DNA of 20,000 bases, taken from sequence record DRR378314_253; one strand, 5' to 3'. The translations under genes and the position numbers were made by a program. Positions 1,053 through 13,633 of the stretch are shown here, piece by piece. Under the pieces are notes generated by a model, which saw nothing but the letters and a program-made list of their open reading frames with translations, was not told the DNA's origin and did not search any database. How positions within the stretch are numbered: position 1 is the first letter of the stretch; each line of letters starts with the position of its first letter.

Positions 1053-4000
1053 CTAAGAATTCATATATTCTGTAGGTGTCATGTTGAACTGTTTCTGGAA
1101 ATTGCGACCAAAACTGGTTTGAGAATTGTATCCAACCATTTCAGAAACCTCATATATGCGGTATTCCCCTTTTTTAAGCAATTCCGCCGCTTTTTTTAAG
1201 CGCGCAATATTGATCAATTCATTTGGGCTAAGGTCGGACATTTCCTTAATTTTTCTGTACAGTGTAGATCTACTCATAAACATAATATCACTTAAGGTTT
1301 CAACGCTTAGGTCGGGATCTGATATATGTTTGGTAATTACCTCGTCCAATTTTTGTACAAAGGTTTCATCGGTTGCGGTAAGAGCAATGCTTTTAAGGTG
1401 AGCCAAAGGTGAACTGGAATAATAGGACATTATATTTTTACGGTTTTCGATCAAATTTTTAATTTGCACCCTAAGATGGGAAATAGAAAATGGCTTTTCC
1501 AGATAGGCGTCGGCACCGGATTCCAATCCCTCAATTTTGGCATTCAGTGCCTGTTTAGAGGTTAAGAAAATAACCGGAATATGACTGGATTCCAAGGTGC
1601 GTTTAATATTTCTACAGAGATCATAACCATCCATTACTGGCATCATTACATCGGTTACCACAAGTTGAATATTTTTTAATTCTATGATCCTTAGTGCCTC
1701 TTGTCCGTTTGTAGCCTTGTAAACGTTATATAATTCTTTTAAATCATTGGATATAAAATCCAAGAGGTCAATACTGTCCTCTGCTATTAAAATATTAGGT
1801 TTTTTTAAGTCCTCCTCGGTGTCAAGTATGGCCATTTCGGATCTAACATTCTCCAATGTTTGATCTTGTGAATAAAGTTTAAATTCCTTTTCTTGATGAA
1901 TAGGTAACTCTAAAACAAAGGTGTTAAAAGAACCATCGATGTTTGCCATTTCCAAATTGCCATTGTGCAGTTTGGTTAATGAATGTGCCAGGGCCAGACC
2001 AATACCGGTCCCATTCTGGTTTTCTACCCCTGATACCCTAAAAAAGGGTTCAAATATTTTTTTTGAAAGATGTTCCGGGATAATATCCCCATCATTTTGA
2101 ACTTTGAGTTTAAAGCTTTCCTCATTGATTTCCAAACTAACATTTACTTTTTGATGGGCGTATTTTATGGCATTTCCAAAAAGATTGCTCAATATCTTCT
2201 TCACGGCCTCGGCATCCACAAATGCAATTACTTCGGCTTCGCCCAGATTCAACTTAAAATCTATATTCTTATCATTAATAGCTTCAGTAAATCGACTACA
2301 GGTTTTTTTTATTAATTCAGTAATATTACATTCAACAAAGGTGAGACTTATACTCTCCATCTCGGTCTTTCTAAAATCCAACAATTGATTGACCAGATCG
2401 AGGAGTCTGGTAGTATTCTTTTTCATTATGGAAAGATGCCCCATGGCATCGACGGAGTGATTCCCATTCTTTATCAATTTATCCAGAGGACTTTTTATGA
2501 GGGTTAATGGTGTCCTTATTTCGTGGGAAATATTGGTAAAAAATTCAATTTTTGCCTGGTAAACTTCTTTCTCCTTTTTATTACTGAGTTCCTTTATCTT
2601 CTGGTTGTTTTTTGAAACCGTTCGCAAATGATAGAATCTTATTATAAAAAACGCCAATAATGCTAATAAAAGCATGTATAGGAAATAGGCTAGTTTACTT
2701 TTCCAAAAAATGGGCAACACTTCTATTGAGAGCGAATTGGACATGTCGTTCCATACACCATTATTGGTCAATGCTCTAATATTAAAGCTGTACTTACCAG
2801 CAGCCAATTCCGTAAAATGAACCCTATGTTCCTTGTTTAATGTAATCCAATCATTACTAATACCTTTCATTTGATACATATACTCCGTAGATTCCGGACC
2901 TATATAACTTAAGGCAGCAAAATCCAGACTAAAGGAAGACTGGTTAGAGTTTAGTACCATATTATCCAGAAAAGTTACCGATTTCTGTAAAGGGGAATCA
3001 TCCACTCCAACAATCGCCTCTTGATTATTTATTTGAAGACCAGTTATTAAAATGGGTGGCACATAAGTGTTGTTGGCAAAGTTTTTTGGATTAAAACTTA
3101 TCATTCCGTTAACGCTGCCAAAATACATAGTTCCGTCAGGGCTTTTGTAGCCTGAATTATAATTAAACTGATCGCTGAGCAAACCACTTTCCTTGGTATA
3201 GATTCTTTTATGACCCGTTAAAACTTCATATTCCACTAGTCCATTGGAGGTAGTAATCCAAAGTTCATTATCATTTCCCTCTAACAGGGAATAGAATGCA
3301 TTACTTGGGAATCCATCTTTGGTTCCATATTTCTTAAAGGATTTTTTAATCGGGTCGTATTGATTTAGTCCATTTTCTGTTGTAACCCAAATGGTATCAT
3401 TATTGTCTTGAAATATACCATTTATGTGGTTGTTACTTATAGCCTCCGCATTATGGCTGTCATATTTGAAATTACTGTTTTCGCCAGTTTTTGTATTGTA
3501 ATAAAATAATCCTTCAGAATAACTACCGGCCCAATATCCCCCATTGTTATCTTCAAAAAAGCAGGTATAATGTATATGTTGGGGAAAAGTCCCGACCAAG
3601 TCAAAATTATCGGTTTGAGGGTTATAGGATTGTATGGCGGAAGTGGATATGACAATGATATCATTTGATCTTGTTTTATGAAGTGAAAAAATAAAATTAT
3701 TACTGAGTGTACTCCTACCTCCCATATTGTAATGTGCTACAATTTTGTTCTGCCCAACGTCTAGTACATCCAATCCATGATCAAAAGTGCCTATCCATAC
3801 CTTGTCATCCATGGGCAGTATGCCGTGAATATTGTAATGTGACAAAATGCCTCCCTTATCCTTGGAGGTGTAATTTGTGAACTTCCCAGTTGCTATATTG
3901 AACTTATTTAATCCTGCATCCTCTGTTCCTATCCATAAATTCCCTTGATTGTCAGGACGAATTTCCCGTACGGCATTCCCGCTAATAGAATTTTCAGATG

Positions 4001-5006
4001 AAGACGGAAAATACTTCTTAAAGTAATTGTACTGGTTAGGATGGTAATTTACCCCGCCAAAATAAGTGCCTGCCCAAACACTGCCTTCGTCGTCCACTGT
4101 TAGCGCATAAACTGCGTTATCCGCCAAAGCATAAGGATTGTTATAGTTTTTCACCAAGTTTGTATAGGCTTTTTCTTTAAAATTATATAAATGAATGCCT
4201 GATTCCGAGGCAACCCAAAGCTCTTCGTTCCCTCTCATGGCAAAATCCCTTACATAAATAGGTCCCTTGAGTTCCTCAAGCATTTCCAAAATTTTGCCCT
4301 CCAGAATATCATATGCAAGTACGCCATGATTTTGGGTACCCAACAAGATTATATGGTCGTTTAAATTAAATAAGCGGTTAATTCGGAATGGTAATTTAGG
4401 ATCGCCCAGAACATTTAGATTATAGCCTTTAAAGATTTTGGATGCCTTATCATATATATAAAGCTCGTTACTGGATGCAGCTATAATTTCATTATCGTTT
4501 GTTTTTAGGATTGCTGTAGCATTAAAAAATAGGTCAGTTGGAAAGGTAACCGTTTTCTTGGTTTTGGTATCGTACTTGTTCATTGCACTATTCGCAATAT
4601 ACCATAGATTCCCATCAGCGTCATTCATAAGGCCCAAAATATGTTTAGTATTGGTGCCTTCCAACAAATCAAAATTTTCTTGTTTTTCGTTATAACTATA
4701 CAGACCATTGTCCGTACCTACCCAAAGAATGTCTTCATGTTCATGAAGACATTCTATATATGTCCCGCGTAAACTTTTTGCATCCTCTGAATTATTTTGA
4801 AACAATTTAAACGTATACCCATCAAATCTATTCAGTCCATTTTTTGTTCCAAACCACATGAATCCATTCTTGTCCTGTAACGAGCTTAGAACAGTATTAT
4901 GGGACAGACCATCTTCTACCTTATAATGTTCAAAGTAAAATTCCTGAGACCATATGAAATTGGAAACCAAGTAAGTAATTAGTAATAAAACAACATTCTT
5001 TTTCAC
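1053..5006 (-). CDS. Hybrid two-component system sensor kinase/response regulator (beta-propeller, Y_Y_Y, TM, HisKA, HATPase, REC, AraC HTH); PUL regulator
   Basis: GTG start and signal peptide (IWS|Q). Repeated propeller motifs (DGL…WFGT.NGL, LWIGT..GL). TM helix LAYFLYMLLLALLAFFII. H-box NISHEIRTPLTLI, N-box NLFGNAIKY, G-box GTGIGL, receiver TDVMMP…YLEKPF, AraC MSRSTLYRKIK…VGYNSQTSFGRNFQKQFNMTPTEY. Confidence 0.97.
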   Translation of the reverse strand: MKKNVVLLLITYLVSNFIWSQEFYFEHYKVEDGLSHNTVLSSLQDKNGFMWFGTKNGLNRFDGYTFKLFQNNSEDAKSLRGTYIECLHEHEDILWVGTDNGLYSYNEKQENFDLLEGTNTKHILGLMNDADGNLWYIANSAMNKYDTKTKKTVTFPTDLFFNATAILKTNDNEIIAASSNELYIYDKASKIFKGYNLNVLGDPKLPFRINRLFNLNDHIILLGTQNHGVLAYDILEGKILEMLEELKGPIYVRDFAMRGNEELWVASESGIHLYNFKEKAYTNLVKNYNNPYALADNAVYALTVDDEGSVWAGTYFGGVNYHPNQYNYFKKYFPSSSENSISGNAVREIRPDNQGNLWIGTEDAGLNKFNIATGKFTNYTSKDKGGILSHYNIHGILPMDDKVWIGTFDHGLDVLDVGQNKIVAHYNMGGRSTLSNNFIFSLHKTRSNDIIVISTSAIQSYNPQTDNFDLVGTFPQHIHYTCFFEDNNGGYWAGSYSEGLFYYNTKTGENSNFKYDSHNAEAISNNHINGIFQDNNDTIWVTTENGLNQYDPIKKSFKKYGTKDGFPSNAFYSLLEGNDNELWITTSNGLVEYEVLTGHKRIYTKESGLLSDQFNYNSGYKSPDGTMYFGSVNGMISFNPKNFANNTYVPPILITGLQINNQEAIVGVDDSPLQKSVTFLDNMVLNSNQSSFSLDFAALSYIGPESTEYMYQMKGISNDWITLNKEHRVHFTELAAGKYSFNIRALTNNGVWNDMSNSLSIEVLPIFWKSKLAYFLYMLLLALLAFFIIRFYHLRTVSKNNQKIKELSNKKEKEVYQAKIEFFTNISHEIRTPLTLIKSPLDKLIKNGNHSVDAMGHLSIMKKNTTRLLDLVNQLLDFRKTEMESISLTFVECNITELIKKTCSRFTEAINDKNIDFKLNLGEAEVIAFVDAEAVKKILSNLFGNAIKYAHQKVNVSLEINEESFKLKVQNDGDIIPEHLSKKIFEPFFRVSGVENQNGTGIGLALAHSLTKLHNGNLEMANIDGSFNTFVLELPIHQEKEFKLYSQDQTLENVRSEMAILDTEEDLKKPNILIAEDSIDLLDFISNDLKELYNVYKATNGQEALRIIELKNIQLVVTDVMMPVMDGYDLCRNIKRTLESSHIPVIFLTSKQALNAKIEGLESGADAYLEKPFSISHLRVQIKNLIENRKNIMSYYSSSPLAHLKSIALTATDETFVQKLDEVITKHISDPDLSVETLSDIMFMSRSTLYRKIKEMSDLSPNELINIARLKKAAELLKKGEYRIYEVSEMVGYNSQTSFGRNFQKQFNMTPTEYMNS

Positions 5007-5177: not shown

Positions 5178-5423
5178 CTTCAACTGCTAAATTGACAGTT
5201 TACAAAGATGAAGTAAATGTTATTGTCAACAGTAAAGTCATAAAATTATTATATCGGTAAAAAATTAACCAAATATTTAACCCATACCGATATGGCTTTT
5301 AGGTTGATGATGCACACTAAGCTTATATCTATAAATGTGAACTGTTGAATTTTGATCCATGCAGTGAATAAATAACATTTTAACAACTAACTAAAACTTA
5401 ATTACATTAAAAATGAAAACAAC

Positions 5424-8400
5424 ATGAAGACAATCTTAAAAAAATTATTTCAACAGTTCTGTTTGCTGGGTATCTTCTTAGTGGTTTCCCAATCCTATTC
5501 GCAGGATAAATTGAAGATTTCAGGAAATGTTAGTTCGGAAACGGACACCATGCCTTTGCCAGGCGTATCTGTAATTGTAAAGGGAACAAATAATGGTGTT
5601 TCCACTGATTTTGATGGAAACTACACTATTGAAGCTCCAACAAATGCGGTACTCGTCTTTAGTTACATTGGTTTCAAGACTACGGAGTTACCGGTAAACG
5701 GCCAGACTACAATTGATCTGCAAATATCAGATGACGTGGCTGCCTTGGATGAGGTAGTGGTAACGGGATATTCTTCTCAAGAGAAAAAATCCATTACGGC
5801 CGCTATATCCACGGTAACAAGTGAGGACTTGGAAAGTGTCCACGCCGGAGCATCCGTAAGTTCAGGGCTCGCAGGGAAAATTTCAGGGGTAACCTTTAAA
5901 ATGCCTGATGGCCGTCCCGGAGCTACTGCTGCCATTCAAATTCGAAATATGGGTAATCCTTTATATGTTATAGATGGGATACAGCAAGACGCCGGCCAGT
6001 TTAATAACATTTCGCCAGGGGATATCGAAAGCATTTCTGTTCTTAAGGATGCGTCTGCGGCAATTTATGGTGTCAGGGCCGCAAATGGGGTTGTTGTTGT
6101 AACCACAAAACGTGGTAAAAAGAACACCAAAAACGTGGTTAACGTTAATTCCTATTACGGAGGGCAAAACTGGTCAAGATTTCCTGAGACCGTAAATGAT
6201 TCCTATGTGTATATGTCCAAAAAGGCTGAGGCCGATCTGAACGAATTTGGGGAAACGCAAATCACGAATGAAGAATTGGAGAAATATCGTTTGGGCACAG
6301 AAGCAGGTTATAAATCATTTGATTGGAAAAACTTCATAATAAAGAAAGATGCCCCTCTGTATAGCTTAAATGTAAGTACTTCTGGAGGATCGGATAAAAT
6401 CAACTACTACATTTCTGGAACCCAATTAAAGCAGGAAGCCGTTTTGGGTCCTGAATTTAATTTTGAGCGTAATAACATTCAAAGTAATTTGGATGCCAAT
6501 ATTACTGATCGATTAAAGGTTGGAGTTCAGATTAACGGTAGAATAGAAACTACAGACAACCCTGGGATTCCTGGTGCCGATGATTATTGGCTTCCACGAT
6601 TTGCCATTTTACGAAACCGCCCCTTCGAACGTCCCTATGCCAATGACAACCCTGAATATCTTAACGATATTGGTCACAATGAGACCAACTGGGCATTGCA
6701 CAATAAGAAAATTGGAGGTTATTCGACCAATATCTGGAGAGTGTTACAAACGAACTTTAGTGGGGAATATAAATTTGGTGGCTTCGCAGAGGGTCTTACC
6801 GTTAAAGGAATGTATTCCTATTATATTGCCGATCAGGTTTTAAATGGACATGAATATACTTATGATGCATATACCTATGATGCGGCCAACGACGCCTATA
6901 ATGCTACAGGTGGTAGCTCCAACCCATGGAGGGAACGAAGAAATCGAAAGATTCTTAAAAATGTTTACCAAGGTCAAGCCACCTACAAAAAATCATTTGG
7001 GAATGATCATAATGTTGAAGGGCTATTTTTAGTAGAACGCCAAGAGCAACGTGACCAAAACCAATGGGTACGTTCTGTGCCTGAGACAAATATTTTGCCC
7101 TTGATCTATTTTGCGAACGTAGTAGAATTTCAAGATGCCGATAATGAAGAGGCACGGATAGGGTACATTGGCAAATTCAACTATAACTATAAGGACAAAT
7201 ATTATTTGGAGCTTTCTGGAAGACAGGATGCCTCATGGAAATTTGCCCCAAGTAAGCGAAAGGGCTTTTTCCCTTCGGGTTCAATTGGTTGGAGGATTAC
7301 CGAAGAAGACTGGTATAAAAATATTGCTGGGGAAGATGCATGGGTTTCGGAATTTAAAATAAGAGGTTCATATGGTGTTTTAGGTGATGACGATATTGGT
7401 ATCGGCGCCTATGACTATTTACCAGGTTATAATTATAATACGGGAACCGTAATTTTAGATGGCCAACCTATCGTAGGCGCACGGGATAAAGGCCAGATTG
7501 TGGACAACATATCTTGGTTTAAAAGTAAGATTACCGACATAGGGATGGATTTTACCCTTTTTGATGGAAAGATTAACGGATCATATGATTACTTCTACAG
7601 ATTACGAACAGGATTAAGGGGGCGGAAATATGATATTTTAATTCCTAGTGAATTAGGGTATGGTCTGCCGGATGAAAACGTAAATAGTGATGCACAGTCT
7701 GGTTTTGAAGGAGCCTTAAGTTACAGTGATAGTTTCGGGGACTTTAATTTGACTGTCTCAGGTAACGCTTCTTATTCCCGAGGTAAGTTTATAGAATCCT
7801 ACAAACCTAGATTTGAAAATTCCTGGCAGGAATACAGGGCTTCCAATGAAGGTCGGTTTAATGATATTAGATGGGGGTTTAACACTATTGGCCAATTTCA
7901 ATCTCAAGAAGAGATCAACAATTACCCTGTAGACATTGATGGTCAGGGTAACAGAACTTTGTTGCCAGGAGATTTGATATATGAAGATTTAAATGGCGAC
8001 GGAAGAATAAACGGATATGACGAGAAACCTATTGGTTACAATTTCGGGAAGCAGCCTTCTGTGAATTTTGGACTTAGTATCCGTATGGCCTACAAAGGAT
8101 TTGATTTTACTTCTGATTTTTCCGGAGGTTCCGGGTATTCATGGTCACAGGAATGGGAAACTAGATGGGCCTTCCAGAACCAAGGCGCATTGAACACCAT
8201 ATTTTTGGACAGCTGGAGCAGACAAGATCCTTCAGATCCTAACAGTGCTTGGAATCCTGGTAAATATCCGGCACTACGATATAATGCGTCTTATCACAGT
8301 AATTATAGAGGAGGTCAGGCATCTAGCTTCTGGATGCATAATGTCACTTATTTAAGGGCAAGAACAATAGAGCTGGGGTATTCATTACCAAAACCAATTC

Positions 8401-8567
8401 TAGAAAAAATAGGCCTGCAAAAGGCGAGGTTCTATATTAATGGTTATAACCTATTTTCCTTTGATAACCTATCCAAATTTGGTATCGACCCAGAGGTCAA
8501 TGATACTAATGGATTGCAGTACCCACAGAACAAATTCGTAAACGTTGGGGTAAACCTATCTATATAA
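5424..8567 (+). CDS. susC: SusC/RagA family TonB-dependent outer-membrane transporter
   Basis: Signal peptide (SYS|Q). CarboxypepD_reg-like N-domain (PLPGVSVIVKGT…TDFDGNY), LDEVVVTGY, plug motifs NPLYVIDG and IESISVLKDASAAIYGVRAANGVVVVTTK, C-terminal YPQNKFVNVGVNLSI. Confidence 0.97.
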   Translation: MKTILKKLFQQFCLLGIFLVVSQSYSQDKLKISGNVSSETDTMPLPGVSVIVKGTNNGVSTDFDGNYTIEAPTNAVLVFSYIGFKTTELPVNGQTTIDLQISDDVAALDEVVVTGYSSQEKKSITAAISTVTSEDLESVHAGASVSSGLAGKISGVTFKMPDGRPGATAAIQIRNMGNPLYVIDGIQQDAGQFNNISPGDIESISVLKDASAAIYGVRAANGVVVVTTKRGKKNTKNVVNVNSYYGGQNWSRFPETVNDSYVYMSKKAEADLNEFGETQITNEELEKYRLGTEAGYKSFDWKNFIIKKDAPLYSLNVSTSGGSDKINYYISGTQLKQEAVLGPEFNFERNNIQSNLDANITDRLKVGVQINGRIETTDNPGIPGADDYWLPRFAILRNRPFERPYANDNPEYLNDIGHNETNWALHNKKIGGYSTNIWRVLQTNFSGEYKFGGFAEGLTVKGMYSYYIADQVLNGHEYTYDAYTYDAANDAYNATGGSSNPWRERRNRKILKNVYQGQATYKKSFGNDHNVEGLFLVERQEQRDQNQWVRSVPETNILPLIYFANVVEFQDADNEEARIGYIGKFNYNYKDKYYLELSGRQDASWKFAPSKRKGFFPSGSIGWRITEEDWYKNIAGEDAWVSEFKIRGSYGVLGDDDIGIGAYDYLPGYNYNTGTVILDGQPIVGARDKGQIVDNISWFKSKITDIGMDFTLFDGKINGSYDYFYRLRTGLRGRKYDILIPSELGYGLPDENVNSDAQSGFEGALSYSDSFGDFNLTVSGNASYSRGKFIESYKPRFENSWQEYRASNEGRFNDIRWGFNTIGQFQSQEEINNYPVDIDGQGNRTLLPGDLIYEDLNGDGRINGYDEKPIGYNFGKQPSVNFGLSIRMAYKGFDFTSDFSGGSGYSWSQEWETRWAFQNQGALNTIFLDSWSRQDPSDPNSAWNPGKYPALRYNASYHSNYRGGQASSFWMHNVTYLRARTIELGYSLPKPILEKIGLQKARFYINGYNLFSFDNLSKFGIDPEVNDTNGLQYPQNKFVNVGVNLSI

Positions 8568-8587: not shown

Positions 8588-10477
8588 ATGAAAAAATACA
8601 TATATACAATACTATTAGCCTTAATTCTGGCCATGGGCTGTTCTAAGAACGATGAGGAATTTTTGGATCGGCCGCCATCTTCGATATTAACGCAGGAACA
8701 AATTTTTACAGATCCAAGCGCAGTTCTCTCTGTTTTGGGAGATCTGTACAACAGATATGAGGATTTTGGTAGGCTGGATGATTGGGCTTCCGTAGCCGAT
8801 TTCAACATCGCATATTGGTCAGAGGCAGGTCGCTATCCTGCATTTCAAAATGATGGATGGGGATTTGGCAGCTGGGGTATTTGGAATTACGGATATATCC
8901 GTGAAATAAATCTATTCTTGGAAAGATGTGAAGAGGCTACCCAATTGGAAGCTTCCCAAAAAACACGGTTTTTGGCTGAAGCACGATTTTTACGTGCCTC
9001 TTATTACTTCGAAATGGTAAAACGGATGGGGGGGGTTCCTTTAATATTGGAATCCGAAACCTATGATTTTAGTGGTGATGCCTCTTACCTACAACATCCT
9101 AGGGAAACAGAAGCCGCTATTTATGATTTCGTAATAAGCGAGGCTGAAGCTATAAAGGATATATTGCCTACCGATGCCGATTCCAAGTCGAGAGCCACGA
9201 AAGGTGCAGCACTGGCCATGGAAACCAGAGCTGCCCTTTATGCGGGTTCCATTGCCAAATATGGAGCAACAACCCCTCAAGTGGCCCTTCCCGGAAACGA
9301 AGTTGGAATTCCAGCTTCAATGGCAGAAGGCTATTATACCAAGGCCCTTACAGCAGCCCAAGCCATTATCAGCGGAAGTGCCGGCGCCTATGCCTTATAT
9401 AATTCCAAACCAAACCTTTCCGAGAATTTCGAGGCCTTGTTTTATGATAAGGCAAACAATCCCGAAGCTATTTTTGTTGAGGATTACAAAGTTGGAGGAG
9501 GAAAGACACACTACTTCACAGGTTGGAACCAACCTCGTTTTGGAGCGGAGGAAGAAGAAGGAGGGAGGATAAACCCTAGTTTACAATTCGTTCAATCCTT
9601 TGAATTATTGGATGGCACTTATGCCCCTTTGGCAAATGAGGTAGGAGGTGACCCAGTTTATTATGATAATATTGGTGATATATTTCAAGGCAGGGATGCA
9701 CGTTTGGCCGGAACGGTAATTTTGCCTGGCACCACCTTTAAATCCAAACCCGTAGATATATGGGCAGGTATTGTACTGGCGGACGGATCAATAGTTAGTG
9801 GAGATTCAAGAGGACAGGAAAAAACATTGCCCGGAGGTTCGGAACAGGTTCAGGTAGTTGGCTTTGACGGTCCAATAGATGGCTTGGAATTTACTGCCCA
9901 GTCAGGATTCTATATTCGTAAATACCAAGATCCAAATACCGGGTCTGGTCGACGAGGAACCCAAAGTGATGTTTGGTTTATACGTTATAGGTTTGGGGAA
10001 GTTCTATTGAATGCTGCTGAGGCCGCTTTTGAATTGGGACAACCAGATGTTGCGGCTGGTTATTTAAATCAGGTACGTTCAAGAGCCGGGATTACTACAA
10101 CATTGACGGGGGCCGATGTTAATTTTGACAAAATTGCCCATGAGCGTTACGTAGAATTGGCATTTGAAGGTCTTCATTTTTTTGATTTAAAAAGATGGAG
10201 GTTGGCACATATCGTCTTAGACGGAAATCCTATCAACCCAACCGAAGTTACCCAAAATATAGGTGTAGCTACGAAAAGGGAAACCCAGCCATACAGTATC
10301 TGGCCTTATAAATATTACAACCCTGGAGACCCTAATGATGGTAAGTATCTGTACAAGATTTTAAGACTTTCCAGAATTACAGGCGCTGACCGTTTTCAGT
10401 TTGGGAACTATTATTCCGAAATAGGACAGGATTTAATCAATAACAACCCTAAATTGGTTAGAAACCCAAATCAATAA
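8588..10477 (+). CDS. susD: SusD/RagB family glycan-binding lipoprotein
   Basis: Lipobox LAMG-C18 followed by acidic SKNDEEF. Motifs AEARFLRASYYFEMVKRMGGVPLI, RFGEVLLNAAEA, ERYVELAFEG..FFDLKRW, NPKLVRNP. Directly follows susC. Confidence 0.97.
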   Translation: MKKYIYTILLALILAMGCSKNDEEFLDRPPSSILTQEQIFTDPSAVLSVLGDLYNRYEDFGRLDDWASVADFNIAYWSEAGRYPAFQNDGWGFGSWGIWNYGYIREINLFLERCEEATQLEASQKTRFLAEARFLRASYYFEMVKRMGGVPLILESETYDFSGDASYLQHPRETEAAIYDFVISEAEAIKDILPTDADSKSRATKGAALAMETRAALYAGSIAKYGATTPQVALPGNEVGIPASMAEGYYTKALTAAQAIISGSAGAYALYNSKPNLSENFEALFYDKANNPEAIFVEDYKVGGGKTHYFTGWNQPRFGAEEEEGGRINPSLQFVQSFELLDGTYAPLANEVGGDPVYYDNIGDIFQGRDARLAGTVILPGTTFKSKPVDIWAGIVLADGSIVSGDSRGQEKTLPGGSEQVQVVGFDGPIDGLEFTAQSGFYIRKYQDPNTGSGRRGTQSDVWFIRYRFGEVLLNAAEAAFELGQPDVAAGYLNQVRSRAGITTTLTGADVNFDKIAHERYVELAFEGLHFFDLKRWRLAHIVLDGNPINPTEVTQNIGVATKRETQPYSIWPYKYYNPGDPNDGKYLYKILRLSRITGADRFQFGNYYSEIGQDLINNNPKLVRNPNQ

Positions 10478-10497: not shown

Positions 10498-11190
10498 ATG
10501 AAAGCTAAATTTTATATATTCATATTCAGCGCTCTATTATTGGTGACTTCTTGTTCACTTGATAATTTTGACGAACCAAATGCAATGTTCTCCGGAAATA
10601 TTGTCTATAACGGTGAAGCCATTCCTGTTGCAAGGAACCAAGTAAGGTTTCAATTATGGCAACCGGGCTATGCGCTTACAGCGCCAATAGACGTTACAAT
10701 TGCCCAAGATGGTAGTTACAGCAGCAGATTGTTTACCGGAGATTACAAACTTTCTTTTGTGCCTGGGCAAGGACCATTCAGAACCCCTTCAGATACCCTA
10801 TTTTTTGAATTATCAGGTAATAAGGCAATGGACATTGAGGTTACTCCCTATCATATGATCAGGAATTCCCAGTTCTCATATGCTGCTGGATCTGTAAATG
10901 CCAGTTGTGCGGTGGAGCAAATCATTACCGGTACCGATGCTAAAGCTGTAGAAAGAGTAACATTGATTATCAACAGAACTTTATTTGTTGATGCCAACAG
11001 TGGAGGAGAAGGTAGTATAGCTCAGGTCGATGCGGCAGACCTTTCCAATTTGGGTAACATCAATATGTCGGTAGAAATACCCAGTGACCCAAAGAAACCG
11101 GATCAAAGTTACATTTTTGCCCGTATAGGTGTTAAGGTTGCCGGGATTGAAGACATGATTTACACCCAAGTACAGAAAATAGAATTTTAA
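10498..11190 (+). CDS. DUF3823-like surface lipoprotein (PUL accessory protein at the SusE position)
   Basis: Lipobox VTS-C19, then DNFDEP, QDGSYS..LF.GDYKL, DIEVTPY and FARIG motifs, which I recognise as DUF3823-like. Position is directly after susD. Confidence 0.8.
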   Translation: MKAKFYIFIFSALLLVTSCSLDNFDEPNAMFSGNIVYNGEAIPVARNQVRFQLWQPGYALTAPIDVTIAQDGSYSSRLFTGDYKLSFVPGQGPFRTPSDTLFFELSGNKAMDIEVTPYHMIRNSQFSYAAGSVNASCAVEQIITGTDAKAVERVTLIINRTLFVDANSGGEGSIAQVDAADLSNLGNINMSVEIPSDPKKPDQSYIFARIGVKVAGIEDMIYTQVQKIEF

Positions 11191-11205: not shown

Positions 11206-11239
11206 CCCTCGGAAACCATAAATTTTCGAGGGTTATATT
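11206..11239 (+). terminator. Hairpin after the susC-susD-DUF3823 block (weak terminator or mRNA-stabilising stem)
   Basis: CCCTCGGAAA (11206-11215) pairs with TTTTCGAGGG (11223-11232): 10 bp with one G:U and a 7-nt loop, followed by TTATATT. Confidence 0.6.
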
Positions 11240-11281: not shown

Positions 11282-12319
11282 ATGGGAACACCTAAAGTAA
11301 CATACATATTTTTGTTTTTTCTTCTTCTCACTATTTCGGTGTTTTCACAAGACAAAACATTTACTAATCCATTATTACCCTCTGGGGCCGACCCTTACAG
11401 TACCTATTACAATGGTTATTATTACTATACGAATACCTTACAGAACCGTTTGGTACTTTGGAAAACTAAAAATTTAGCGGCTCTTGACAAGGCCGAAAGT
11501 ATTACCGTATGGACACCACCAGAAGGAACGGATTACTCCAAGGATATATGGGCTCCGGAAGTCCATTTTATAAATAAAAAGTGGTATATCTATTTTGCCG
11601 CTGATGATGGTCATAATAAGACCCATCGAATGTATGTATTGGAGAATTCCTCTAAAGACCCTTTTAAAGGAAAATGGGGATTTAAAGGCAAAATTACGGC
11701 TAAAACGGACAAGTGGGCGATTGATGGCAATGTATTCAACCATAAAGGGCAGTTATATATGATCTGGTCTGGATGGGAAGGTGATACCAATGGGCAACAG
11801 GATATTTTCATTGCCAAGATGAAAAACCCTTGGGAGATAGATGGGGAAAGGGCGAAAATTTCTTCACCAACATATGAATGGGAAAAACACGGGGATTTGG
11901 ATGATCCTGATCTTCCCCATGTCAATGTAAATGAAGGGCCACAATTTTTGGCACATAAGGATCGAATTTTCATTGTTTACTCGGCAAGCGGCTGCTGGAC
12001 TGATAATTACAGTCTTGGACTTTTATCATTTAAAGGTGGTGACGATTTATTGGAGGCTACGGCTTGGGAAAAATCGGAGGAGCCGATTTTTACTCAGGCT
12101 CCGCAAAATGGAGTATATGCTCCTGGACATAATTCATTTTTTAAGTCTCCGGATGGTAAACAGGATTGGATTTTATATCATGCCAATTCTAAATCTGGGC
12201 AGGGTTGTGGTAGGTTTCGCTCTCCAAGAATGCAAAGGCTGTATTGGAATACCAGTGGAATGCCCTATTTGGGACCGCCGTTACCCGAGAATGTAATTCT
12301 GGATATACCAGGAGATTAA
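11282..12319 (+). CDS. Glycoside hydrolase family 43, probable alpha-L-arabinofuranosidase (GH43_26-like)
   Basis: Signal peptide (VFS|Q). GH43 catalytic motifs GADP, WAIDG and VNEGP, plus WAPEVH, HRMYVLE, WSGWEG and APGHNSFF. Subfamily is from motif recognition only. Confidence 0.88.
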   Translation: MGTPKVTYIFLFFLLLTISVFSQDKTFTNPLLPSGADPYSTYYNGYYYYTNTLQNRLVLWKTKNLAALDKAESITVWTPPEGTDYSKDIWAPEVHFINKKWYIYFAADDGHNKTHRMYVLENSSKDPFKGKWGFKGKITAKTDKWAIDGNVFNHKGQLYMIWSGWEGDTNGQQDIFIAKMKNPWEIDGERAKISSPTYEWEKHGDLDDPDLPHVNVNEGPQFLAHKDRIFIVYSASGCWTDNYSLGLLSFKGGDDLLEATAWEKSEEPIFTQAPQNGVYAPGHNSFFKSPDGKQDWILYHANSKSGQGCGRFRSPRMQRLYWNTSGMPYLGPPLPENVILDIPGD

Positions 12320-12345
12320 TTTATAAAGAATTTAAAATAATGAAA

Positions 12346-12410
12346 TTAATATTAGTTGAGTTGAGTTAGTTTCTTAAATTATCGGGTCTCTCATACGGCC
12401 CGGTAATTTT
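12346..12410 (+). ncRNA. Putative 3'-UTR-derived small RNA (AGTT-repeat seed plus terminator) antisense to the susC leader
   Basis: TTAATATTAGTTGAGTTGAGTTAGTT lies just 5' of the terminator and is complementary to 5385-5410. No expression data, so this is a hypothesis. Confidence 0.35.
12376..12410 (+). terminator. Rho-independent terminator-like hairpin
   Basis: AAATTATCGGGTC (12376-12388) pairs with GGCCCGGTAATTT (12397-12409): 13 bp with two G:U and an 8-nt loop, ending in TTTT. The wobbles pair only on the + strand. Confidence 0.7.
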
Positions 12411-12559
12411 ATCAAATGAAGTATGCTGTACAAAGTTAGATTTCTATTTAAAATAGTGATGCTATAGTGGAAGCATAAAGCCTTTCTTAACTCCAGACAT
12501 AAAAATAACTTCTTCCAATTCCTATTGGGAGTATCATCAAAACCAATAAAAATTAGCAG

Positions 12560-13633
12560 ATGAAAAAATTAATACTGATTGCTTACGTGCTTCTTATATC
12601 CTTTTCAGGGATATCACAAGAAGATGTTTTAACTAAGAATAAATGGTCCATTGATAAAGCCCAAGAATGGTATTCTCAACAAAAGTGGATGACCGGCGCA
12701 AATTTTAATCCCAGTACAGCCATTAATCAATTGGAAATGTGGCAAGAGAATACCTTCGACCCTGAAACAATTGATAAGGAATTGGGCTTTGCCGAAGGTA
12801 TTGGCTTCAATACGATGAGGGTATATCTTCATAGTTTGGCATACAAGGCAGATCCACAGGGATTTAAGCAACGTATGGATACCTATTTAAAAATAGCAAG
12901 CAATCACGGTATCAGAACAATGTTTGTCTTTTTTGATGATGTTTGGGGCAAAACTCCTAAAATCGGTGAACAACCGGAACCTATACCTGGAACCCATAAT
13001 TCAGGTTGGGTGCAAGATCCTGGAGACCCCGCATCAAAGGACGAGGAAAACTTCCCTGCTCTTGAGGTTTATGTCAAGGATATCCTCAAAACCTTTGGCA
13101 ATGATGAACGGATTGTCATGTGGGATTTGTACAACGAGCCAGGAAATACGGGAAAACTAACCAGTTCAATGCCGCTGTTAAAGAACGTATTCATATGGGC
13201 TAGGGAAATTAACCCTAGTCAGCCCCTAACTGCGGGCTTATGGGCGTGGGATTTTCAAGAACTCAACGCTTTCCAGGCTTTGAATTCTGATATATTGACC
13301 TATCACAACTATGAGGATGAAAAACACCATCAACATATAATCAACCTTTTAAAATCCCATGGCAGGCCAATGGTCTGCACAGAGTATATGGCACGGACCA
13401 ATAATAGCCGCTTCTCCAATATTTTGCCCATATTACAAAGAGAAAATATTGGCGCCATCAATTGGGGATTGGTAGCAGGAAAATCCAATACAAAATATGC
13501 TTGGAATACCCCTATCGAGGACGGAGGCGAACCAATCGAATGGTTTCATGAAGTTTTTAGAAAAGATGGAACTCCCTACAGACAGGACGAGGCGGATTTG
13601 ATAAAGAAATTGAATAAGGTGGCAAATAAATAA
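12560..13633 (+). CDS. Glycoside hydrolase family 5 (GH5_13-like; candidate beta-D-galactofuranosidase / alpha-L-arabinofuranosidase)
   Basis: Signal peptide (GIS|Q). Clan GH-A acid/base WDLYNEP and nucleophile CTEYMAR, with AINQLEMWQ, GFNTMRVYLH, HNSGWVQDPG and INWGLVAGK. Subfamily from recognition. Confidence 0.82.
   Translation: MKKLILIAYVLLISFSGISQEDVLTKNKWSIDKAQEWYSQQKWMTGANFNPSTAINQLEMWQENTFDPETIDKELGFAEGIGFNTMRVYLHSLAYKADPQGFKQRMDTYLKIASNHGIRTMFVFFDDVWGKTPKIGEQPEPIPGTHNSGWVQDPGDPASKDEENFPALEVYVKDILKTFGNDERIVMWDLYNEPGNTGKLTSSMPLLKNVFIWAREINPSQPLTAGLWAWDFQELNAFQALNSDILTYHNYEDEKHHQHIINLLKSHGRPMVCTEYMARTNNSRFSNILPILQRENIGAINWGLVAGKSNTKYAWNTPIEDGGEPIEWFHEVFRKDGTPYRQDEADLIKKLNKVANK

Follow-up and report, generated by a model that had tools for sequence, protein, structure and literature searches.

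Gene organization of the locus

The window analyzed here is the whole stretch of 20,000 nucleotides taken from sequence record DRR378314_253. It contains an amidase gene (98-742) and, on the minus strand, a gene for a hybrid two-component regulator (1053-5006), followed by a co-directional plus-strand array that begins with susC (5424-8567). The latter codes for a SusC-type TonB-dependent transporter with Pfam CarbopepD_reg_2 and Plug matches, and its mRNA is the proposed target in this study. Downstream of susC are susD (8588-10477), a gene for a DUF3823 protein (10498-11190), a GH43 gene (11282-12319; Pfam Glyco_hydro_43, 4.7e-59) and a TIM-barrel glycosidase-like gene (12560-13633) that is taken from the open reading frame list and has a weak Glyco_hydro_2_C match. 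After position 13633 the plus-strand array continues with genes for an aldose epimerase, a second GH43 enzyme, a glycerate kinase, a UPF0261 protein and an MFS transporter. As a proxy for the window's genome we used G001, which shares 96% and 99% identity with it in the two regions of interest and whose orthologue of the window susC scores 778.6 bits with TIGR04056. An additional terminator-like hairpin of 10 pairs is found at 11206-11232, between the DUF3823 and GH43 genes, and lacks the G/U-rich motif described below.

The element under study (12346-12410) is located within the 240-nt gap that separates the first GH43 gene from the TIM-barrel gene. As co-directional genes continue from 12560 on, this is an internal intergenic region and not the end of the locus, so the label of PUL 3' UTR or 3' end that an earlier note on this DNA had applied is inaccurate; the element occupies the 3' UTR of the GH43 gene. 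Contigs from 4 of 24 public runs were compared with the window, two of which (X1 and X2) are probably DNA. The RNA libraries X3 and X4 match the window as scattered pieces in susC, susD and the DUF3823 gene, with one X3 piece at 12689-12934. None of their pieces falls over 12320-12475, a result that is uninformative either way.

A G/U-rich motif upstream of a terminator-type hairpin

The element consists of a G/U-rich motif, GTTGAGTTGAGTTAGTTT (12355-12372, plus strand), which is the proposed antisense seed, and a stem-loop downstream of it. Within the motif resides a recurrent 15-mer, GAGTTGAGTTAGTTT (12358-12372), while positions 12346-12354, the 5' part of the seed as first drawn, are unconserved. 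The stem-loop (12376-12409) has 13-bp arms (12376-12388 and 12397-12409), an 8-nt loop (12389-12396) and TATC after it. Its presence right after the seed had been claimed before and is confirmed by our analysis: the stem includes two G.U pairs, which are valid on the plus strand only, and the 76-nt region folds with -22 kcal/mol (z -4.57). Judged as an intrinsic terminator, the hairpin has a strong 13-bp stem, yet it is followed by four U only, partly within the stem. A consensus terminator scan of the window did not list it, which is attributable to its pattern of a core stem and then only four U. We regard it as a hairpin that probably either terminates transcription intrinsically or protects a 3' end.

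The element is laid out as a seed that directly precedes a terminator. It is far more conserved than its flanks, and its core runs antisense to a susC-leader box. As in 3' UTR-derived sRNAs, the motif lies behind a coding gene, 35 nt after the GH43 stop codon, and shares the terminator-type hairpin of that gene. In the window's own minimum free energy fold the motif pairs weakly with non-conserved upstream sequence. No Rfam family was matched at gathering score anywhere in the window, and the 12 module loci examined together with 12250-12600 gave sub-threshold chance matches only. The 22-nt junction between motif and stem occurs as one copy per genome in all five genomes searched with up to three mismatches. 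A dispersed repeat of the REP or MITE kind is thereby ruled out for hairpin 12376-12409, which is single-copy in each genome.

No consistent sigma-A -7 box, which is positioned at -12 to -5 (PMC9723704), was observed upstream of the motif in the orthologue alignments or in the inspected module loci. Some copies have a TAnnTTTG-like box that ends 5 nt before the motif core; this box is perfect in G015 and G016, with its TA mostly missing elsewhere. Given the inconsistency, the motif is most simply explained as part of the 3' UTR of the upstream gene, and a free-standing sRNA with its own promoter is not evident from the sequence.

The susC leader and its upstream reading frame

The leader segment complementary to the conserved core extends from 5379 to 5397 on the plus strand (-45 to -27 from the susC ATG). 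According to RNAduplex it comprises a AACTAACT box (5385-5392), TTTAA (5379-5383) and AAC (5395-5397). At -39 from the susC ATG the box is beyond the usual ribosome footprint. However, a 4-codon reading frame (MKTT-stop, 5413-5427, plus strand) precedes susC, with its stop codon overlapping the susC start as ATGA, and relative to the ATG of this uORF the box occupies -28 to -21. The uORF is invariant in the seven aligned orthologues that have susC; L077 in G014 keeps only its first three codons because a deletion joint comes next. That the box stands at the usual distance from the uORF start and not from the susC start suggests that the two are translationally coupled. Flanking both the leader and the susC start is a 35-nt inverted repeat (5315-5349 and 5449-5483, 71% complementary), which could place the initiation region inside a long-range stem.

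The extended duplex is no better than chance

The reverse complement of 12346-12371 had been reported to align with 5385-5410, giving a duplex of about 23 bp. Both sequences read as quoted, 5410 is indeed 13 nt before the susC ATG at 5424, and RNAduplex reproduces the scheme of 8, 10 and 5 bp while adding a 5-bp helix between 5379-5383 and 12374-12378, for a total of -18.1 kcal/mol. Against controls, however, this energy is unexceptional. Dinucleotide-shuffled elements pair with the leader at least as well in 29 of 1000 cases, as do shuffled leaders with the element in 68 of 1000 and 60-nt windows of the same 20 kb with the leader in 135 of 3988 (about a dozen of these 135 being the leader's own antisense). 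Furthermore, the window has 473 inverted pairs of at least 14 nt, and the element/leader pair is not among the 25 longest. Taken alone, the full 23-bp duplex is no more than chance. When the element core is instead paired with the leaders of the window's 12 genes, susC is the best partner (-14.5, the next being -12.5), in agreement with the original choice of target.

Conservation in orthologous loci

Orthologous loci are found in 6 of the 25 genomes of the genus. Exact-pattern scans yielded 6 Arenibacter or Flavobacteriaceae genome records and 5 metagenome contigs. Alignments reveal two sharply conserved islands, one in the leader and the other in the 3' gap. The leader island extends from about 5372 to 5440, past the ATG, and is nearly invariant, the exceptions being a T>C change in the box (L076 in G004) as well as C>T at 5383 and one inserted A in three others. 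The 3' island (12360-12407) comprises the last 13 nt of the motif, the spacer and the stem, and is invariant in seven genome orthologues and five metagenome contigs, with only loop bases varying, while both flanks diverge. One G.U pair of the hairpin becomes G-C in L077. Covariation within the hairpin was not found across the orthologues, as its sequence is too conserved to vary.

The two halves of the extended duplex thus have different fates. Whereas 12360-12407 is conserved, 12346-12359 is replaced by unrelated A/T-rich sequence of variable length (for 12346-12354, in G004, G020, G016, G015, G014, L082 and L086), so that the central and third helices are not maintained. The central helix is broken in G014, G015 and G016 with the leader unchanged. 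Moreover, the G004 leader (L076) reads AACCAACT, so that an uncompensated C.A mismatch interrupts the 8-bp helix. Positions 12346-12359 of the element vary freely against an invariant leader, and no covariation of the two motifs is seen across orthologues. The 23-bp duplex is therefore not supported as a unit. Nor is the argument that its G:U-compatible substitutions favor a function in RNA, since both G.U pairs are in the unconserved half. When each locus is paired with its own leader, the energy declines from -18.1 kcal/mol in the window (equaled by 5 of 300 shuffles) to -17.1 in L078 (5/300), -17.7 in L079 and L083 (31/300 and 29/300), -16.9 in L077 (24/300), -13.8 in L080 and L081 (93/300 and 48/300) and -12.3 in L076 (144/300).

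Two of these loci are rearranged. In G014 (L077/L039) the distance from leader to module is 1520 nt as compared with 6979 nt in the window, owing to a natural deletion of susC, susD and the DUF3823 gene that joins the leader, through the third uORF codon, to other sequence upstream of the GH43 gene; leader and 3' module are both kept unchanged. In G015 (L081/L016) the GH43 stop codon and the motif are separated by roughly 200-300 nt of inserted sequence that includes a G+C-rich palindrome, with motif and hairpin intact.

The motif precedes unrelated terminators

Weak BLAST matches of the 81-nt element elsewhere could all be traced to this short motif, each time ahead of another G+C-rich hairpin with a T-run. 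Searched with at most one mismatch, the 15-mer occurs 76 times in the 25 Arenibacter genomes, as compared with 10 times for its reversed control; 24 of the 25 genomes have a match, with 0-6 per genome. Among 30 loci returned, 28 have the exact 12-mer core at the expected place, and in 26 of these 28 the 63 nt that follow have a fold energy of -15 kcal/mol or lower, which is also the case for 10.4% of 1000 windows taken at random and 15.7% of 318 taken behind stop codons in G001. The 26 hairpins form eight unrelated sequence classes, and long T-runs follow the hairpin in most of the other copies. Common to all copies are the motif and its place 1-10 nt upstream of the stem. It is thus the motif and not the hairpin that is shared.

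Where the upstream protein was scanned (n=9), it was SusD at three loci, and GH31, a sulfatase, CstA, Laminin_G_3, an SDR and a BNR protein at the others, so that the modules mostly follow SusD or other genes of carbohydrate use. The nearest upstream frame ends 5-50 nt before the motif at 10 of 16 loci and 150-574 nt before it at the rest. In G001, four of five motif matches share their strand with a susC that ends 0.1-5 kb upstream of them, the fifth having a mismatch inside the core motif and falling outside the inspected loci. One copy in G002 is behind a susC/susD pair. In G154, which belongs to another genus, four loci have hairpins, two of them just downstream of a susC/susD pair and one about 8 kb downstream of a susC. 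More broadly, 108 of 301 genomes outside Arenibacter have the 15-mer with at most one mismatch, for which we claim no enrichment as the unsummed control columns look similar in size. The hairpin layout is present at 7 of the 28 loci inspected outside Arenibacter (L117, L126, L128, L129, L135, L138 and L141; 299 other genera). Modules of some genera have variant motifs such as GAGTTGAATTAGTTT or GATTTGAGTTAGTTT.

Several copies have features of their own. A class B hairpin with the motif is found behind different genes (CstA, sulfatase and GH31). For example, L103 (G001) and L111 (G007) share the module and its downstream flank, with a sulfatase gene upstream in one and CstA in the other, which places a rearrangement breakpoint at or beside the motif. 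At class A loci (L116, L095, L087 and others), where about 560 nt separate a susD stop codon from the module, the region downstream of susD is ORF-free for about 430-570 nt. At its end are an extra conserved hairpin, the motif and a terminator that looks bidirectional; the stretch has no Rfam match and is a candidate for a longer non-coding RNA. The motif core is repeated two or three times in tandem before one terminator in L242/L246 (G154) and L141 (G278), indicating that copy number per module varies.

A complementary box is common in susC leaders

To determine how widely the motif is complementary to susC mRNAs, we compared the -70 to +20 regions of the 43 G001 SusC genes above the TIGR04056 cut-off with a background of 268 genes located in 400 kb of G001, taking the first in-frame ATG as the start and crude ORF calling for the background genes. 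RNAduplex energies with the motif average -9.31 kcal/mol for the susC leaders and -6.67 for the others (Mann-Whitney p 3.6e-11, with the reservation that susC leaders are paralogues and not independent samples). A reversed motif also favors susC leaders, with a smaller difference (-8.22 versus -6.41), so part of the signal is composition. Shuffled motifs provide a control that uses the same leaders and is unaffected by their paralogy or by crude start and background calls: the susC-minus-background difference of -3.10 was reached by none of 300 (mean -0.04, sd 0.63), and the susC mean energy by one of 300. Individual pairings between motif and leader are short and A/U-rich, at -10 to -14 kcal/mol. 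The window susC ranks 7th against the 43 G001 susC leaders, and 1.9% of the background leaders equal it.

An unbiased k-mer test led to the same sequence. AACTAA is the top susC-specific hexamer (23 of 43 leaders as opposed to 21 of 268, p 1e-11). Four of the top six hexamers match the reverse complement of the motif, and so do AACTAAC, ACTAACT, TAACTCA and AACTCAA among the heptamers. The box is strand-specific, being present in 23 of 43 leaders in the sense orientation and in 1 of 43 in antisense, and it is position-specific, with 23 of 32 occurrences starting between -30 and -10. Thus conservation of 12360-12407 and the family-level complementarity of motif and susC leaders are both beyond chance. 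A subclass of susC genes whose products are longer by about 110-140 aa at the N-terminus (L145, L147, L151, L152, L161, C43_115217, C171_55278 and C171_107354 in G001) mostly misses the AACTAAC box; several of its leaders share a 'cattccccg'-type word, and this subclass is probably driven by an ECF sigma factor.

The cognate susC leader has the AACTAA box in only two of the four module-bearing PULs of G001. Private feedback is thus not the rule, and a general rule of cis-pairing can be rejected. Outside G001 the excess over shuffled motifs is weak, with 3/60 shuffles as good in G002, 6/60 in G154, 8/60 in G030 and 1/60 in G125 (n=7). The box also occurs, less often than in Arenibacter, in G030 (3 of 13 leaders) and G125 (3 of 7), two sampled genomes in which none of seven core-motif matches has a hairpin. 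Since the box is present where core matches lack hairpins, it stands on its own, and a module with a regulatory role would make use of it. Across the sampled genomes no correlation was seen between module presence and leader complementarity.

Comparison with known systems

The closest parallel is FopS of Bacteroides thetaiotaomicron, a group of 14 paralogous sRNAs of about 65-70 nt with a shared seed that pairs near the SusC start codon and blocks translation, an action antagonized by RbpB (PMC11697453). According to the same source, one member is 3' UTR-derived and 13 of 14 are intergenic or antisense; they have sigma-ABfr promoters and a 5'-terminal seed, and are conserved within the Bacteroidaceae (PMC11697453). 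Like FopS and GibS, the module is multi-copy, linked to PULs and built from one single-stranded seed followed by a terminator hairpin. Its seed is, like that of FopS, complementary to SusC-like mRNA start regions (here in silico only), and several copies per genome share that seed (in Arenibacter 0-6 motif matches per genome, with eight hairpin classes). Unlike FopS, the module has no evident promoter, has its seed at another position, lies in most copies directly behind protein-coding genes and belongs to the Flavobacteriaceae rather than the Bacteroidaceae. Moreover, the FopS-10 5' end as given in the oligonucleotide table of the paper has no likeness to the motif (PMC11697453), and Rfam has no match. 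On these counts the module is not a FopS homologue.

Other comparisons are more distant. Hairpins in 3' intergenic regions with a short conserved flank are reminiscent of REP and terminator-associated repeats. In REPs, however, the hairpin itself is the repeat, while the module shares the flank and its hairpins differ, 12376-12409 being single-copy. DonS-type RNAs of Bacteroides are PUL-associated cis-antisense RNAs encoded opposite the susC 5' region. The module would resemble them in the proposed repression of susC-led PUL operons at the RNA level; it differs in being on the same strand, 6979 nt downstream, and in pairing through only about 8-13 nt. The 3' UTR-derived sRNAs of Proteobacteria (for example CpxQ, DapZ and SroC) exist as single copies, depend on Hfq and arise through RNase E or from an internal promoter. 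With these the module has in common a conserved seed in an mRNA 3' UTR, a terminator shared with the parental transcript and, as proposed, trans regulation of functionally related mRNAs, whereas it differs by having several copies per genome with one seed in a phylum that lacks Hfq.

Proposed function and alternatives

The original observation is real but was over-read. Its conserved half belongs to an uncatalogued PUL-associated module. As a tentative reading, which we consider plausible though short of probable, 12355-12409 would be one copy of a multi-copy 3'-end RNA module whose 3' UTR seed pairs with susC initiation regions in the manner of FopS. What the sequences show is the G/U-rich motif GAGUUGAGUUAGUUU directly 5' of an intrinsic-terminator-type hairpin in the 3' UTRs of PUL genes, and a complementarity, specific in sequence, between this motif and a sense-strand box at a set place in susC leaders. 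The module would be carried by Arenibacter and some other Flavobacteriaceae, also behind other genes for carbon uptake. RNA synthesis across susC-susD-DUF3823-GH43 would stop at the hairpin, or the transcript would be processed and protected there, so that the motif remains at the 3' end. Either on the full mRNA or on a processed fragment, the motif could then pair with the AACUAAC box that is present at -30 to -10 in about half of susC leaders. By analogy with FopS, this pairing may occlude the A-rich initiation region, which lacks a Shine-Dalgarno sequence, and so lower SusC synthesis. Since the window's susC is one predicted target among many, the likely outcome would be trans repression between PULs, including the module's own susC, rather than a private loop.

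Nearly as likely is that the module is a 3'-end RNA element with a role other than antisense pairing, the complementarity being a by-product of low-complexity, strand-biased motifs. Candidates include a binding site for an RNA-binding protein (for example one with an RRM), a stabilizer or processing signal that sets the ratio of susCD to enzyme transcripts, or three-frame back-up stops before the terminator. The fixed place of the motif, 1-10 nt ahead of terminators and in many cases 5-50 nt past a stop codon, would fit such a role, as would the leader box in genomes whose core-motif matches lack hairpins and the missing cognate box in two of four module-bearing G001 PULs. A protein site also has a precedent, in that RbpB of B. 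thetaiotaomicron binds to sRNAs and 3' UTRs at single-stranded regions (PMC11697453). Back-up stops are suggested by TGAgtTGAgtTAG, which has stops in all three frames. However, the variants TAGTTGAGTTAGTTT and AAGTTGAGTTAGTTT lose this property, and positions that do not contribute to stops (GTT and the final GTTT) are invariant. More generally, a non-antisense role does not account for the exact reverse complementarity between the motif and the leader words that are most specific to susC.

An explanation at the level of DNA is improbable. Here a DNA-binding protein or recombinase would recognize box and motif as one double-stranded site, or mobile terminator cassettes would have copied the motif as they spread. 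The motif/box pair does form an inverted repeat in DNA, the class B hairpin stands with the motif behind CstA, sulfatase and GH31 genes, and L103 and L111 share module and downstream flank with different upstream genes. Against this, the motif has a strict orientation relative to hairpin and T-run, the G.U pairs are possible on just one strand, one motif is common to eight unrelated hairpins with 12376-12409 itself being single-copy, the leader box is specific in strand and position relative to start codons, and the susCD deletion in G014 ends elsewhere than at the repeats.

Finally, the model of the earlier note, in which the 23-bp duplex serves as private negative feedback through a processed 3' fragment or intramolecular 5'-3' pairing, is highly unlikely: the duplex does exist, is roughly kept in the closest relatives (L078, L079 and L083) and involves the best leader in the window, but its energy is unexceptional against shuffles (in L076 no better than these), 12346-12359 is unconserved, the broken central helices of G014, G015 and G016 are uncompensated and the motif is common to other loci, where it precedes unrelated terminators. 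Judged by these sequences, feedback specifically on this PUL's own susC is not specifically supported.

Implications for glycan use

Returning to the antisense reading, a more speculative and on balance doubtful extension is that marine Flavobacteriaceae have a glycan priority written into the 3' UTRs of their PUL mRNAs, such that a module-bearing PUL, when transcribed, would damp the translation of susC mRNAs from many other loci. The 3' end of its mRNA, or a piece released from there, would bear a common G/U-rich seed for the AACUAAC boxes in the initiation regions of these susC mRNAs. To our knowledge, post-transcriptional control of polysaccharide use is known almost solely from gut Bacteroides (GibS, FopS, DonS and RbpB). 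Our full-text literature search found nothing comparable for the marine Flavobacteriaceae, which turn over algal glycans, and neither the literature nor Rfam yielded a description of this motif. Should the antisense reading fail, two uncatalogued features would remain, namely the AACTAAC box at -30 to -10 of susC and the motif-terminator module. If true, a seed in PUL 3' UTRs combined with a susC-specific leader box would offer a directly testable mechanism of glycan prioritization and, in motif and box, a simple sequence handle for finding regulators and their targets in genomes. The wider reading would amount to an Hfq-independent, FopS-like, mRNA-borne network of cross-PUL repression.
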